A stretch of DNA of 64,000 bases from Spirochaetota bacterium (lineage in GTDB: Bacteria > Spirochaetota > Spirochaetia > Treponematales > UBA12059), in contig JAPLSN010000011.1 of the NCBI GenBank assembly GCA_026398615.1, positions 12,577 to 76,576 of the forward strand, in the 5' to 3' direction. The position numbers and the translations under genes are program-made. A model generated the notes under the pieces. The model was given only the letters and a program-made list of their open reading frames with translations, did not search any database and was not told the origin of the DNA. Shown one piece after another: positions 41,924 to 55,999 of the stretch; the first letter of the stretch is position 1; every line of letters begins with the position of its first letter.

Positions 41924-42541
41924 TCAGCGCGGATTGACGATGTTGTTCATGAAGGAGACGAGTACGCCGAGCGCGTTCTCGTTCGCACCTCCTTCCGGGA
42001 TGATGAGGTCGGCGTACGCCTTGGTGGGTTCGATGAATTCGTAGTGTCCCGGGCGCACGACGTTCAGGTACTGCTCGATGACGGAATCCAGGGTACGGCC
42101 GCGTTCCTTGATGTCGCGCGTCAGGCGCCGTATGAACCGTATGTCGTCGGGGGTGTCCACGAAGATCTTGAGGTCGATGAGGTCGCGGACCGCCTTGTTC
42201 GTGAAAATCATGATCCCTTCGAAGATGATGAGCTTTTTCGGGACGACGTGGATCGTCTCCGCGGCCCTGCGGTGGTGTACGAAGTCGTAGGTCGGCATCT
42301 CCACGCTCTTGTCCGCCTTGAGGCACATGAGGTGCTCGACGAGCAGGTCGTTGTCGAAAGCTTCGGGATGGTCGAAGTTGAACGCCGTGATGTTCGCGTT
42401 GGAAATGTACTCGGCGCTCTTGTAGTAGTTGTCCTGGGGAAGGAAGACGAAATCCGAGACGACTTCCGAAATCTTCCGCACGATCGTGGTTTTCCCGGAC
42501 CCCGACCCCCCGCAGATGCCGATAAGCTTGGGCTGGCTCAT
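41924..42541 (-). CDS. udk: Uridine kinase
   Basis: [46 protein letters not shown]. Confidence 0.95.
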
Positions 42542-42602
42542 GAGAGCCAGCATAGCACCCCCGGGAAGGCATGAAAAGCGGGAAACGACCGTTCTCCCGC
42601 GA

Positions 42603-43766
42603 TCATTTCGCAGGTCCCACCGCCGCGTAGAAATCCTTGAGCTGGTCGTCGTTTTCGGGGACGAGGATGGTTCCATCCACGATCTTGCGCTTGATGGCGT
42701 CGAGATCGGAAAAATACGGTTTCAGCGCGTCCTCGTTGTACTGGTTCACGGCAAAATCGACCCCGCCGTCCGCGAGCTCGAAGAGGCGGTATCCCCCGCG
42801 CACTTCCTCCCGGTCCATGAGTTCCTTGCCCAGGAGGAATACGGCCCGGTCGACCCGCTTGATCATGGACGTGACGATGATCGACCCGTACTTGACCAGT
42901 TCCGGGACACCCGAGTCATGGTAGATGGCGCCCTGGTCCGAGTCCACGCCGATCGCGAGCTTGTCGTTCTCGAAAGCCGCCTTGAATACGCCGGCCCCCG
43001 ACGCACCGGACGCGTGGAAGATGATTGCCGCCCCCCTTACGAACATCTCGTAGGAGGCGGCGTACGCGCCGTACGGGTCATTGAAGCCCGTGACGTCCGG
43101 CGCAACGTACTTCGTCACGAATCCGCCAGGGAGCAGCGCCGGGTTCGTGAACGCGGCGCCCGCGTAGAACCCGACCCTGAACCTGTTGACGATCGGGCTG
43201 TTGGTGCCGCCGAGGAAGCCGACGCGCCTGGACTGGTCGCTCCGGGTGAGGTAGCCGGCGAGTGCCCCCACCATGAACGCGCCCTCGTGCTCGGAAAAAT
43301 TCACGCAGGTGATATTGGAATCAGTATTGAGGTTCGGGATGATGCCGTCCACGACCGCGAAGTGGGTATCCGGGAAGTTCTTGGCGGTGATGAGGGCCGC
43401 CTCGGTGTAGGCGTTGCCGATCCCGATCACGAGGTCGTAGCCGTCCTCCGCGAAGAACCGGAACAACTGCTCGTTGTCCCGGCCGTCGGCCTTGGTTTCC
43501 AGGTAGCGGAGCTGGAGGCGGTAGCCTTTGCTCACGCCGTCGGGATCGTCGACGATGAAACCATAGAAGGTTTCGGCCAGGATCTTGATGCCTTCGTATG
43601 CCGAATCGTTGAACGCGCGGTCGCCGCGTCCGCCGATGTCGAACGCCACGCCGATCTTGTGCACGGGTTTCACCGGCCCGACGAAATTCCCGCCCGTGGT
43701 CGATTCCCTGCGGCATCCCGATGCCAGGGCCAGGACCGCCGCGAGGACGAGCGCCATCCTTTTCAC
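42603..43766 (-). CDS. BMP-family (PnrA/TmpC-like) binding lipoprotein
   Basis: LASGC lipobox, [37 protein letters not shown] start. Confidence 0.9.
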
Positions 43767-43853
43767 CGTCTTTTCCTTTCGACACGGGCTGGTGCCAACG
43801 GACCGCAGGGTCCGCACGACGCGAGGGGGCATCCCGGGCTCCCTCGCGGGAGG

Positions 43854-44801
43854 TCAGCGTTTACCCGCGTCGTAGATCTCTCCGGCGGCCTTCGGGCCGA
43901 CCGATTTGCCGCTGAACACGATGAGCGCGACGATCGTGAGCACGTACGGAAGGACATAGAAGACGTCGGTCGGAACCGACGAGAGGAAGGGAATGTCCTT
44001 GGCGTAGTACGAGAGGGTCTGGGCGAACCCGAAAAAGAACCCGGCGCCCAGCACGCCCCACGGATTCCATTTCCCGAAGATGAGCGAAGCGAGGGCGATG
44101 AAGCCCGTGCCATGCACCGAGCCGATTGTGTACTGGATGTCCTGGGTCAGCACCATCGTGGCGCCCGCGAGCCCCGCGAGGGCGCCCGAGGCTCCCACAC
44201 CGATGTAGCGCATCCAGAAGACGTTGATGCCCATGGACGCCGCCGCCTGGGGATTCTCGCCGCAAGCCCGGAGCCTGAGGCCGAAGGGGGTCTTGTAGAC
44301 GACGAACCAGGTGAACGCGACGAGGGCCAGGGCGATGTAGAAGGTCGGGTAGATCTCCGTGAAGACCGCCGGCCCGAGGATCGGGATGCGGTTGAGCAGG
44401 GGCACCGTGACTTTCAGGACGCCGGTCTGGAAGGAACTCGTCCGCTGCTGGTTGAAGAAGATCTGGCAGAGGTAGACGGTAAGCCCGCCGGCCAGGATGT
44501 TGAGGGCCGTGCCCGACACGACCTGTTCGGATTTGAGGTTGATGCTGGCGAAAGCGTGGAGCATCGAAAATACGATGCCCGCGAGGATGCCGACGCCGAG
44601 CCCTATCCATCCCGCCAGGGGCGTGACGGGTTCGAGGACCACTATGATCGAAGCGGCCGCGAAACCGCCCACCATCATGATGCCTTCGAGGCCGATGTTC
44701 ACGATGCCGGAGCGTTCGCTGAACAGCCCGCCGAGCGCGGCGATGACGATCGGCGTGGTGCCCGCCAGGGCGATGGGAAACATCTGGACGAGGATGTTCA
44801 T
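43854..44801 (-). CDS. Nucleoside-type ABC transporter permease (NupC-like)
   Basis: SERSGIVNIGLEG, GLRLRACGENP, GFIALA.LIFGKWNP, LPYVLT. Confidence 0.9.
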   Translation of the reverse strand: MNILVQMFPIALAGTTPIVIAALGGLFSERSGIVNIGLEGIMMVGGFAAASIIVVLEPVTPLAGWIGLGVGILAGIVFSMLHAFASINLKSEQVVSGTALNILAGGLTVYLCQIFFNQQRTSSFQTGVLKVTVPLLNRIPILGPAVFTEIYPTFYIALALVAFTWFVVYKTPFGLRLRACGENPQAAASMGINVFWMRYIGVGASGALAGLAGATMVLTQDIQYTIGSVHGTGFIALASLIFGKWNPWGVLGAGFFFGFAQTLSYYAKDIPFLSSVPTDVFYVLPYVLTIVALIVFSGKSVGPKAAGEIYDAGKR

Positions 44802-53986: not shown

Positions 53987-54474
53987 GCGATCGAGATGAC
54001 GGCGAATTCGCGGACCCGGTCCGCAGCGTCGCGATGGGGGCCGACCATGGCGCGGTCGCCCAGAAGGAAATGCTGGCGAGGTACCTCGGGCTCCTCGGGT
54101 ATCTCGTCGTGGATGTCGGATGTTTCGGCACCGACAAGGCGGATTATCCCGATATCGCCGCGGCGGTCTGCCGCAAGGTCGTCTCGGGCGACTGCGAGCG
54201 CGGGATCGTCCTCGACGGAGCGGGCATCGGCTCCTGCATGGCCGCCAACAAGGTCAGGGGAATCAGGGCGGCGCTGTGCTACGACCTCAGGACGGTCGTC
54301 AACAGCAGGGCGCACAACAACGCGAACGTGCTGACCCTCGGCGGCCCCATGCACGGACCCGACGCGCTCGCGGAAATGGCGCGGGTCTGGCTCGAGACGC
54401 GCTTCGAGGGCGGACGTCACATCGTGCGCATAAACAAGATGATGGCATTGGAGCGTGGAGGCTCGATCGACTGA
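53983..54474 (+). CDS. rpiB: RpiB/LacAB-family sugar-phosphate isomerase
   Basis: [37 protein letters not shown]. Confidence 0.92.
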
Positions 54475-55274
54475 TGGACCAGAACCAGATCATCCAGAAG
54501 ATAGTGGAGGAAGTCATGGCGAGGATGGTCGCCGTGCCGGGAGCGCAGGCGGCCGCACCGGTCCCGCCCGCCAAGCCGGCGGCCGGAGCCGGGGAAGGCT
54601 TGTTGCCCCCGGACCTGGCGAAGTACATCGACCATACGCTCCTCAAGCCCGATGCCACCGTGGAGCAGATAAACGTGCTCTGCGACGAAGCGGTGAAGTA
54701 TCGCTTCTGGTCGGTGTGCGTGAATTCCTCGTGGGTGGAGTATTGCGCGCGAAAGCTCGGAGGAACTGGCGTGAAGGTGTGCGCGGTCGTCGGATTCCCC
54801 CTCGGCGCGATGGACAGCCGCTCCAAGGGTCTCGAGGCCCGGACCGCGGTGGCCAACGGCGCCGCGGAGATCGACATGGTCGTCAACATGGGCACGCTCA
54901 AGGCCAAGGACCTGAAGGCGGTCCGCGAGGACATGCTTGCGGTGCGCAGGGCTTGCAGGGCCGGGATCGTGCTCAAGGTCATCATCGAGACCTGCCTCCT
55001 GACCGACGAGGAAAAGGTGCTCGCCTGCCAGATCGCCAAGGATATCGGCGCGGATTTCGTGAAGACCTCGACCGGGTTCAGCAAGAGCGGCGCCACGGTC
55101 GCTGACATAACGCTGATGCGCAGGACGGTCGGCCCCAAGATGGGAGTGAAGGCATCGGGAGGGGTAAAGAGTTTTGAGGACGCCGTCCAGATGATACGTG
55201 CGGGAGCCACGCGGCTCGGGACGAGCTCGGGCGTCGCCATCGTGAGCGGGCAGGCGGGCTCCGCGGCCTATTGA
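54474..55274 (+). CDS. deoC: Deoxyribose-phosphate aldolase with an N-terminal encapsulation-peptide-like extension
   Basis: [45 protein letters not shown]. Confidence 0.96.
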
Positions 55275-55327
55275 GCATCGCGTCGCCACACGTGGCTCCG
55301 CGCGGCCGGTGCCGACCGGATACCGCC

Positions 55328-55999
55328 CTATTCCGGAAGCTCTGAGACAATGCTGACGCCTGAACTCGCCCCAATCCGATCCGCGCCGGCGTCGAGCATC
55401 TGGAGGGCGTCGTGGTAGTTGCGCAAGCCCCCGGAGGCCTTGATCTTCATCCGGTTGCCGACGACCTTGCGCATGAGGCGGACGTCGTCCACGCTGGCGC
55501 CGCCGGTGCCGAATCCCGTGCTCGTCTGCACGAAGCGCGCCCCGGCCTTGAGGGACGCCTCGCAGGCCTTCTCCTTCTCGGCGTCGGTGAGATAGCAGGT
55601 CTCGATGATCACCTTGACGGTCGCGTTCCCCGAGGCCTTGACGACCGACCGGATGTCGTCCTCGACGGCGCGCCAGTCGCCGGACTTGGCTGCCCCGACA
55701 TTGATCACCATGTCGACTTCGCGGGCTCCCTGCTTCACCGCCAGCGCTGCCTCGGCCGCCTTCACCTCCGTGGCGTTGGCGCCGAGGGGGAAGCCGATGA
55801 CGGTGCAGACCATCACCTTCGAACCTGCGAGCTCACGGGCGCAAAGCGGCACCCAGCAGGGATTGACGCAGACACCCGCGAAGCAGAACTTCCGCGCCTC
55901 GGCGCAGAGCTCGCGGATCTGCTGCTCGGTCGCGATGGTCTTGAGGGTCGTGTGATCGATCGTCGCCGCCAGTGCGTCCTTGGTCCATGCAGTGGGCAT
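55328..55999 (-). CDS. deoC: Second DeoC homologue with the Schiff-base Lys replaced by Gln
   Basis: IDHT, IGFPLGA, EVDMV, KVIIET, KASGG, RIGASS present, but FVQTSTGF instead of FVKTSTGF. Confidence 0.9.

Follow-up and report, generated by a model that had tools for sequence, protein, structure and literature searches.

A small SPU-type microcompartment operon with a divergent deoR gene beside a nucleoside importer cluster in Rectinemataceae (Spirochaetota)

Genes of the microcompartment operon and its flanks

The stretch of DNA analysed here (the window; 64,000 nucleotides, 63% G+C) belongs to contig JAPLSN010000011.1 from assembly GCA_026398615.1 of a Spirochaetota bacterium. Its subject is a ten-gene operon on the plus strand (positions 50062-55274, 5.2 kb), which by its gene content appears to encode a metabolosome of the sugar phosphate utilising (SPU) type of bacterial microcompartment (BMC), possibly of a reduced subtype. 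The SPU type itself is known. It was named in 2014 (Axen, PMC4207490), comprised more than 280 loci from 26 phyla and seven subtypes by 2021 (Sutter, PMC8217296) and was partly characterised in vitro in 2024 (Dwyer, Sutter & Kerfeld, PMC11585597). An earlier note on this DNA had assigned the locus to the SPU class, an assignment that is borne out by the joint presence of all its typical genes, and had described the class as having little experimental characterisation, which is outdated since the work of 2024. The spirochaete host suggested there is in line with the nearest named relative, a metagenome-assembled genome (MAG) of the Rectinemataceae (Treponematales, Spirochaetota) whose acylating aldehyde dehydrogenase (AldDH) is 77% identical. 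A PF00936 profile search of the 3.38 Mb, 99% complete genome located BMC-H genes at this locus only.

Genes in the window were chosen by third-position G+C first and by family scans (Pfam, NCBIfam) second. The operon starts with a BMC-H gene (50062-50361; PF00936, 107 bits), whose ATG is preceded by a conserved AGGAGG motif, followed by a CcmP-like tandem BMC-T gene (50365-51006), which is of the BMC-Tdp class by similarity (NF053796 CcmP, 275 bits, under the cut-off of 340), a second BMC-H gene (51068-51373; PF00936, 106 bits) and two BMC-P genes (51387-51689 and 51686-51976; PF03319, 85 and 88 bits). After the AldDH gene (51988-53421; NF011927, 649 bits) come two further BMC-P genes. The first of these (53430-53708) was read from the translation and has orthologues by tblastn in all loci of the family, while the second (53705-53986) matches PF03319 with 83 bits. 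The operon closes with genes for an RpiB-like ribose-5-phosphate isomerase (RPI; 53983-54474; PF02502, 156 bits) and a deoxyribose-phosphate aldolase (DERA), DeoC1 (54474-55274; TIGR00126, 282 bits), the stop of the former overlapping the start of the latter. Family scans and translation confirm in this way the divergent operon of seven shell proteins (two BMC-H, one BMC-T and four BMC-P), acylating AldDH, RpiB and DeoC described previously.

The signature enzyme of SPU loci is a DERA with an N-terminal extension (PMC11585597). DeoC1 possesses such an extension of 46 residues and is the predicted encapsulated paralogue. The extension is not present in DeoC2, a cytosolic paralogue encoded convergently with the operon (55328-55999, minus strand; TIGR00126, 278 bits). 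The deoC2 gene, with which the interval covered by the earlier note ends, was missing from that note. A helix motif at the N-terminus, followed by a linker of differing length, was found in the 12 Spirochaetota SPU DERAs compared and also in the alignment consensus. In an AlphaFold2 model of DeoC1 (17-row alignment) a helix is predicted for residues 3-19, residues 18-40 have a pLDDT below 50 and the TIM barrel one above 90. The catalytic aspartate and both lysine motifs align with those of solved DERAs. In a tree of 21 DERA sequences, 15 BMC-associated proteins (one from Chloroflexota) are split from six untagged ones with a support of 85/94, two rows being long-branched. Since DeoC1 and DeoC2 are only 54% identical and fall on opposite sides of this tree, DeoC1 is no recent local copy of DeoC2.

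The AldDH belongs to an acetaldehyde-type family (NF011927; EutE-like matches) and carries an N-terminal encapsulation-peptide-like segment before a Pro/Ala linker. This segment is conserved across the family loci, and encapsulation of the enzyme is predicted; the targeting peptide of SPU AldDHs is described as N-terminal, with the exception of SPU6 (PMC11585597). The RPI has an aspartate at the position where the RpiB of Clostridium thermocellum (3he8) has the cysteine of the 'CGTG' motif. This residue, D78, is invariant in 19 of 19 aligned SPU RPIs, which share 47 invariant columns including His and Arg positions. SPU RPIs have been described as DERA-binding proteins that have no catalytic cysteine, an aspartate in its place being mentioned for the RPI of SPU6 (PMC11585597). 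RNA-derived sugars, which the earlier note had named among the substrates, gain no support from an RPI in which the catalytic cysteine is replaced throughout. A helix-like N-terminal extension of the RPI is present in L070, L071, L074, L075 and L079 from other Spirochaetota families and in the Chloroflexota locus L005; in the five Rectinemataceae RPIs compared there is no room for one, and the protein of the window has no N-terminal targeting peptide. The helical hydrophobic moment of the N-termini did not tell tagged and untagged proteins apart.

All minus-strand genes listed in the earlier note were recovered by Pfam and NCBIfam. The outermost is udk, encoding uridine kinase (41924-42553; TIGR00235, 268 bits; NF004018, 272 bits), whose longest open reading frame (ORF) extends to 42676 and whose presumed start is M42. 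It is followed by the gene for a divergent Bmp-family substrate-binding protein, bmp1 (42603-43757, presumed start; PF02608, 149 bits), with a lipobox-like signal, two ABC permease genes of the BPD_transp_2 family (43854-44801, PF02653, 170 bits; 44798-45895, PF02653, 141 bits as scored in a longer ORF, the NCBIfam scan being made on 44798-45895), a gene for a double-cassette ABC ATPase (45892-47412; two PF00005 stretches, 160 bits) and bmp2 (47550-48569; PF02608, 252 bits). These genes provide the full composition of a Bmp-type importer, i.e., Bmp proteins, two permeases and a fused double ATPase. Bmp2 appears to be a PnrA/TmpC orthologue (335 bits and an E-value of 4e-99 with Treponema pallidum TmpC, 2fqw), and the nucleoside-type importer proposed earlier can be specified as PnrA/TmpC type on the basis of this similarity. 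PnrA is specific for purine nucleosides. Bmp1 is a distant member of the family, with 7x0r (123 bits) and the 6y9u group (98 bits) as its best solved relatives. Altogether the genome contains seven Bmp genes.

Next to deoC2 lies orf200 (56071-56673, minus strand), which codes for a protein of 200 amino acids and, at the loci of the family, is always flanked by deoC2 and valS. A role as deoxynucleotidase was considered, but its weak HD_4 and HD matches in Pfam and its Atlas neighbours, unnamed HD/PDEase clusters mostly from Spirochaetota, give no assignment; that it is a nucleotide-related hydrolase is a guess. Elsewhere the window holds other genes of anaerobe type (10-3111, 21195-24836 and 27174-29396), for a BcrAD/DUF2229 CoA-enzyme activase-like protein, a pyruvate:ferredoxin oxidoreductase and a 740-aa protein with Fer4_20 and Pyr_redox_2 domains (dihydropyrimidine-dehydrogenase or GltD-like).

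DeoR and its putative operators

The regulator gene deoR (48791-49567, minus strand) encodes a DeoR-family repressor with an HTH_DeoR domain (PF08220, 37 bits) and a DeoRC sensor domain (PF00455, 133 bits). Wherever the flank of a family locus can be read, it is adjacent to the BMC operon and divergent from it. The operon is preceded by a sigma-70-type promoter (49706-49734, plus strand; TTGACA, 17 nt, TAAGAT). The intergenic regions of nine family loci align on an invariant TGCTTGAC.T..(A/C)ACA block that holds the -35 hexamer of this promoter, the hexamer itself being invariant in all nine. The palindrome recognised by DeoR of E. coli is TGTTA-N6-TAACA (PMC5326754), a pattern that fits the conserved block as well as another site located 30 bp upstream of it. 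In the window, the corresponding operator-like sites are O1 (49703-49718, plus strand), which lies in the conserved block of the family alignment and overlaps the -35 hexamer, and O2 (49673-49688, plus strand), which agrees with the palindrome at 8 of 10 positions and whose column block is kept in the alignment.

The number of such sites in the window is in itself not above chance: there are three matches with at most two mismatches, namely O1, O2 and a third within the ATPase gene, and 35 of 100 shuffles reach at least three. When the deoR-BMC intergenic regions from five Spirochaetota families were compared, 16 of 16 contained a site with at most two mismatches and six a perfect one, while mononucleotide shuffles averaged 0.02-1.3 sites per region. 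The rest of the genome has two sites with at most one mismatch, and the strict O1 motif derived from the conserved columns occurs once in the genome. A wider DeoR regulon was not found by the genome-wide operator search, and there was no site at pdp, deoD or punA. Since the operator sites are essentially confined to the BMC promoter, DeoR appears to be a repressor of local scope, acting on the organelle operon and probably on its own gene as well. The sensing role ascribed to DeoR before can be kept in this narrower form, as the divergent adjacency and the palindromes point to a regulator of the locus.

The 5' leader of the operon contains a dispersed repeat of approximately 90 nt (49838-49931, plus strand), which contains a near-perfect hairpin. 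Copies that are 72-85% identical over 40-93 nt occur on eight other contigs and once more on contig C23. In the relatives the leader is about 250 nt shorter, and the repeat is specific to the genome of the window. It looks like a small dispersed repeat that was inserted in the leader and accounts for the extra length. No known riboswitch was detected in the leader: a scan of the window at Rfam gathering thresholds returned one tRNA only, and an E-value scan of 49600-50100 gave chance-level matches to eukaryotic lncRNAs.

The cassette as a discrete unit and the older importer cluster

With the AldDH as query, matches were obtained in 12 of the 42 genomes of the family, the window's own (G000) included. 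Two of these genomes (G025 and G007) possess a different BMC type, with no DERA or RPI match; their AldDHs (L026 and L028) are 53-55% identical to the query, and L026 additionally holds PduS, a tandem BMC-T and two CoA-transferase subunits. The SPU cassette, which measures 6.5 kb from deoR to DeoC1, is present in 10 of the 42 genomes and in six of the 12 genera. Its gene order, deoR divergent from H-T-H-P-P-AldDH-P-P-RPI-DERA, is collinear as far as the contigs reach and can be read as a whole in the window, L003 and L020-L025. Four sequencing runs contain the locus, all of them DNA runs of freshwater-sediment metagenomes from one study, and two of these are possibly its source.

The cassette type is not restricted to this family. 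In a sample of 401 genomes of the phylum, full-length DERA matches that bear the extension and are 59-63% identical were found in four other Spirochaetota families. Fifteen loci from this sample were examined in detail and, where the contig reaches, they read deoR divergent from (H)-T-H-P-P, a gap of approximately 1-3 kb that most of them show, and AldDH-P-P-RPI-DERA. In two annotated loci of another family (L070 and L073), the gap between BMC-P2 and AldDH is occupied by PduS, tandem BMC-Ts and triose-phosphate isomerase (TPI). Because these two loci hold PduS, BMC-Ts and TPI and the five loci of other families named above a tagged RPI, the Rectinemataceae cassette, with none of the three and an untagged RPI, is on this gene comparison a reduced derivative. 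A further locus from another family (L072 8432-12236, G121) is apparently broken: AldDH-P-P-RPI-DERA and TPI are left, and where the upstream shell genes would be expected there is a gene with matches to a Mu-transposase C-terminal domain and an integrase core.

The genus of the window includes a second species (G018, 96% complete), which possesses neither deoR nor BMC genes and has intact flanks. Its gene order is valS-orf200-deoC2, a stretch of 1.44 kb, bmp2, a contig break and then atp-perm1-perm2-bmp1-udk-argB-like-yajC. Within the genus, exactly this site thus either has or lacks the whole 6.5-kb unit that runs from deoR to DeoC1. The 1.44-kb stretch contains one unrelated ORF of 281 codons (L035 285-1130, G018:C17) with a signal-peptide-like N-terminus and no counterpart in the window. 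In another genus (G008), the cassette lies on a separate contig between a subtilase and a DUF2239 gene, and the orthologous importer is found in the order valS-orf200-deoC2-bmp1-bmp2-atp-perm1-perm2, all on one strand. Judged from these comparisons, the deoR, shell and enzyme genes together are a discrete, movable unit.

A Bmp-type importer stands beside the cassette in seven of the eight family loci with readable flanks, G008 being the exception. G005 and G012 were too fragmentary to be counted, and G032 is readable downstream only, with no importer there. Three arrangements occur. The importer lies past deoR and on the same strand as deoR in the window, G009, G010 and G011; in L003 it is downstream on the operon strand, with a two-component system inserted; and in G003 and G006 it is convergent downstream and paralogous (Bmp 44%, ATPase 64% identical). 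The inserted genes in L003 (14742-19570), which is from the named Rectinemataceae MAG, encode an HD-GYP-type response regulator and a hybrid PAS histidine kinase of 1240 amino acids; they separate the Bmp gene downstream of DeoC1 from the gene of the ABC ATPase.

Outside the family the picture is different. A Bmp importer was found at none of the 15 SPU loci of other Spirochaetota families, four of which have another ABC ATPase, in one case together with a ribose-type binding protein adjoining deoR. Among the best 80 DERA relatives on metagenomic contigs, 24 lie on contigs with at least two shell-protein matches, and none of these SPU-like loci, many of them on short contigs, has a Bmp match. 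Nine of the other 56 contigs show a deoC adjoining bmp-atp-perm-perm, four of them together with udk. Three contigs from gut metagenomes (L132, L133 and L147) read bmp-atp-perm-perm-deoC-udk and have no shell genes, which is the same module that flanks the cassette of the window. The locus L070 (462-5202, G089) has a ribose-type (Peripla_BP_4) ABC importer that directly adjoins deoR. This hints that different lineages pair SPU microcompartments with different sugar or nucleoside importers.

Since the importer cluster occurs without BMC genes in G018, at the G008 importer locus and on the nine metagenomic contigs, deoC and the Bmp importer, with or without udk, are by synteny a recurrent, BMC-independent and older cluster, into which the SPU cassette was placed in Rectinemataceae. 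The earlier note had described uptake, sensing and encapsulated catabolism as one linked module. The linkage stood within the family, where importer, deoR and BMC genes occur together in the seven loci mentioned, and did not extend to the loci of other families or of the metagenomes; as a statement about one module it is overstated, given that the cluster exists without BMC, has its own putative promoter and lacks a DeoR-like site.

Two alternatives to this view have to be considered. In the first, the superlocus of importer, DeoR and BMC is regulated as a whole: transcription would read through from deoR into bmp2 and the importer genes, so that one signal would induce all of them jointly. 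Such read-through is possible. There is no strong terminator after deoR, the importer genes are its neighbours with the same orientation both in the window and in three g5 genomes (L021, L024 and L025), and DeoR of E. coli controls the nucleoside transporters nupG and tsx as well (PMC5326754). The recurrence of the importer beside the cassette in three arrangements would also suit joint control. However, bmp2 is preceded by promoter-like sites of its own (48603-48650, minus strand), the proximal one of which is conserved together with the ribosome-binding region in G018, where there is no BMC, and none of the three operator-pattern matches in the window is located upstream of bmp2. Moreover, G018 and the importer locus of G008 have importer and deoC2 but neither deoR nor BMC, udk is a neighbour in G018 and on non-BMC contigs and not at other cassette loci, and the 15 SPU and 24 metagenomic SPU-like loci outside the family lack Bmp matches. 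We therefore consider joint regulation doubtful. The preferred reading of the 'superlocus' is that two modules serving one pathway have come to lie side by side in this lineage, and a single regulon is not supported.

In the second alternative, importer and BMC came to be neighbours neutrally, through recombination between the two deoC paralogues or at a local hot spot for insertions, and no selection links them. The absence of the cassette at the same site in G018 and its different location in G008 would agree with this, as would its patchy distribution in the family and the presence of seven Bmp genes in the genome. On the other hand, all three junction types keep a Bmp-type importer, including the paralogous one in g3 with a Bmp identity of 44%, and in L003 the importer lies downstream on the same strand. 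A neutral origin is thus improbable, in our opinion, and the juxtaposition of two modules with a common pathway remains the preferred reading.

Proposed pathway and comparison with known systems

To our knowledge, neither the natural substrate nor the regulation of an SPU microcompartment has been demonstrated in any organism. We think it likely that the operon 50062-55274 encodes a minimal SPU metabolosome for deoxyribose-5-phosphate (dR5P) that is repressed by DeoR and fed by the older nucleoside cluster. The PnrA-type importer, udk and the untagged DeoC2 would constitute this older uptake and catabolism cluster, supplying the same pathway, with the importer transcribed from its own promoter and the deoR-BMC cassette inserted between importer and deoC2 in the lineage of the window. 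Nucleosides would be converted to deoxyribose-1-phosphate (dR1P) by Pdp, PunA or DeoD and then to dR5P by a mutase that has no assigned gene. Phosphorylases of all three types are encoded elsewhere in the genome (the pyrimidine-type Pdp with 550 bits to TIGR02644, a PunA type and a DeoD type). dR5P would enter the shell to be cleaved by DeoC1, and the tagged AldDH would turn the acetaldehyde into acetyl-CoA. Because the locus contains no phosphotransacylase (PTAC), PduS or alcohol dehydrogenase, acetyl-CoA and NADH would have to leave the shell, probably via the large BMC-T pore, as proposed by Dwyer et al., who suggest for subtypes without PTAC that acetyl-CoA, CoA and NAD(H) are exchanged by way of the Tdp pore (PMC11585597). 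A cytosolic PduL-type PTAC and acetate kinase may use the exported acetyl-CoA; genes for a PduL-type PTAC of 190 amino acids without extension, a PTA_PTB protein, acetate kinase and an iron-type alcohol dehydrogenase (Fe-ADH) are present elsewhere in the genome. The divergently encoded DeoR would repress the operon at the two TGTTA-N6-TAACA-like operators, one of which covers the -35 hexamer, and would probably be released by dR5P, by analogy with DeoR of E. coli.

Several observations weigh against this pathway or parts of it. The canonical phosphopentomutase DeoB (TIGR01696) was not found in the genome and exceeds the cut-off in none of the 42 family genomes, and therefore the step from dR1P to dR5P has no assigned enzyme; four genes of the PGM/PMM family are candidates only, and a 583-aa protein of this family is encoded on contig C1. 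There is no cofactor-recycling enzyme in the locus that could account for the balance of NAD+ and CoA within the shell. At least one BMC-Ts is described for every SPU subtype and PduS for all subtypes except SPU6 (PMC11585597), and the CcmP-like gene is the sole tandem BMC gene of the locus. The BMC-Ts gene of L070 and L073 has no counterpart in the window or at the family loci, and the genome-wide PF00936 search returned the two BMC-H genes only. Likewise, no match to PF01512, PF13375 or PF10531, indicative of PduS, was present among the ORFs of the locus, a genome-wide search not having been made. The best NCBIfam match of DeoR, the E. coli-type model PRK10681, reaches 150 bits and the cut-off is 244, and no DeoR-like site with at most two mismatches precedes the importer at bmp2. 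Finally, no RNA sequencing runs are listed among those holding the locus.

We regard it as very improbable that the compartment serves mainly another purpose than the degradation of dR5P, with the RpiB-like protein feeding DERA and AldDH from another sugar phosphate or with DERA condensing in order to trap acetaldehyde: the constraint on the RPI (47 invariant columns and D78 in 19 sequences) seems more than a pure scaffold needs, no clear role of the RPI in the pathway was found by Dwyer et al. (PMC11585597), and DeoB and cofactor recycling are missing, but the catalytic motifs of DERA are intact, the AldDH is of an acetaldehyde-type family, the operators are of the kind known from the deoxyribose regulon of E. 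coli and the cassette lies within a cluster of deoC and nucleoside genes. A combined proposal is similarly a long shot. Here the cassette would be a plug-in organelle module that docked repeatedly beside Bmp importers and deoC, as three junctions in one family would suggest, and the Asp-variant RpiB-like protein would be no dead scaffold but the supplier of the DERA substrate within the shell, either through a step that starts from ribose-phosphate or through a pentose-phosphate conversion outside the canonical ones, for example dR1P to dR5P. The supplying role is proposed because the whole family is without DeoB.

The metabolosome for dR5P outlined above is of interest beyond this genome, since the SPU type is among the most widespread microcompartments. 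The locus adds independent genomic-context support for the hypothesis that SPU microcompartments scavenge deoxyribose or DNA, and it does so in two ways, namely by putative operators of E. coli DeoR type that are conserved at SPU promoters across Spirochaetota and by the embedding of the cassette in a cluster of deoC, nucleoside importer and udk. The very small operon, with ten genes and without PduS, BMC-Ts, TPI or PTAC, is suited for heterologous reconstitution. Furthermore, presence and absence of the cassette at one site within a genus can be used to ask what the organelle offers over a cytosolic DERA. No genome of the family has a DeoB match over the cut-off, although nucleoside phosphorylases are encoded along with one or two deoC genes, and this draws attention to an enzyme that is missing from the supply route.

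New with regard to the known SPU type are the cassette as a discrete unit, its older context of deoC, Bmp importer and udk, the DeoR palindromes in all 16 intergenic regions, the reduced gene set and the lack of DeoB throughout the family. The main text of PMC11585597 does not mention transporters, nucleosides, DeoR or spirochaetes. The texts of PMC8217296 and PMC4207490 mention neither nucleosides nor spirochaetes; spirochaete loci, accessory transporters or regulators may already be listed in the supplements of PMC11585597 (Dataset S1, Tables S1 and S2) and PMC8217296 (Supplementary Data 2).

Compared with the DeoR regulon of E. coli (deoCABD, nupG, tsx; PMC5326754), the locus has in common a DeoR-family repressor, a 16-bp TGTTA/TAACA palindrome with 6-bp spacing and targets in deoxyribose or nucleoside catabolism. 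It differs in a DeoR protein that stays under the model cut-off, in a microcompartment as target, in a motif that is essentially limited to one promoter and in the absence of deoA, deoB and deoD from the locus. The importer resembles the PnrA (TmpC) system of Treponema pallidum in the homology of Bmp2, the two BPD_transp_2 permeases and the double ABC ATPase. In contrast to that system, it has two binding proteins, one of which (Bmp1) is divergent, and is linked to deoC and udk; deoxynucleosides may be part of its predicted ligand range.

As far as SPU microcompartments are described in the main text of Dwyer et al. (PMC11585597), the cassette shares with them the extension of DERA, the N-terminal peptide of AldDH and a Cys-less RPI adjoining DERA. 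Their shells comprise at least three BMC-P, and a CcmP-like BMC-Tdp occurs in SPU2 and SPU3; the window likewise has several BMC-P paralogues, basal BMC-H and a CcmP-like BMC-Tdp, and as in the subtypes with Tdp there is no PTAC in the locus. It differs from them by the lack of BMC-Ts, PduS and TPI, by the loss of the RPI targeting peptide, by four instead of three BMC-P and by its insertion in a cluster of deoC, Bmp importer and udk. A last comparison concerns the SPU-type microcompartments of Hodarchaeales, as described in a preprint (bioRxiv 10.1101/2025.11.08.687404). Whereas the archaeal loci keep PduS/MNdh, BMC-Ts, PTAC and a DNA-binding tail on a BMC-P, none of which is seen in the locus of the window, the route proposed for both is the same, leading from nucleic acid via deoxynucleosides, dR1P and dR5P to DERA and AldDH within a shell.

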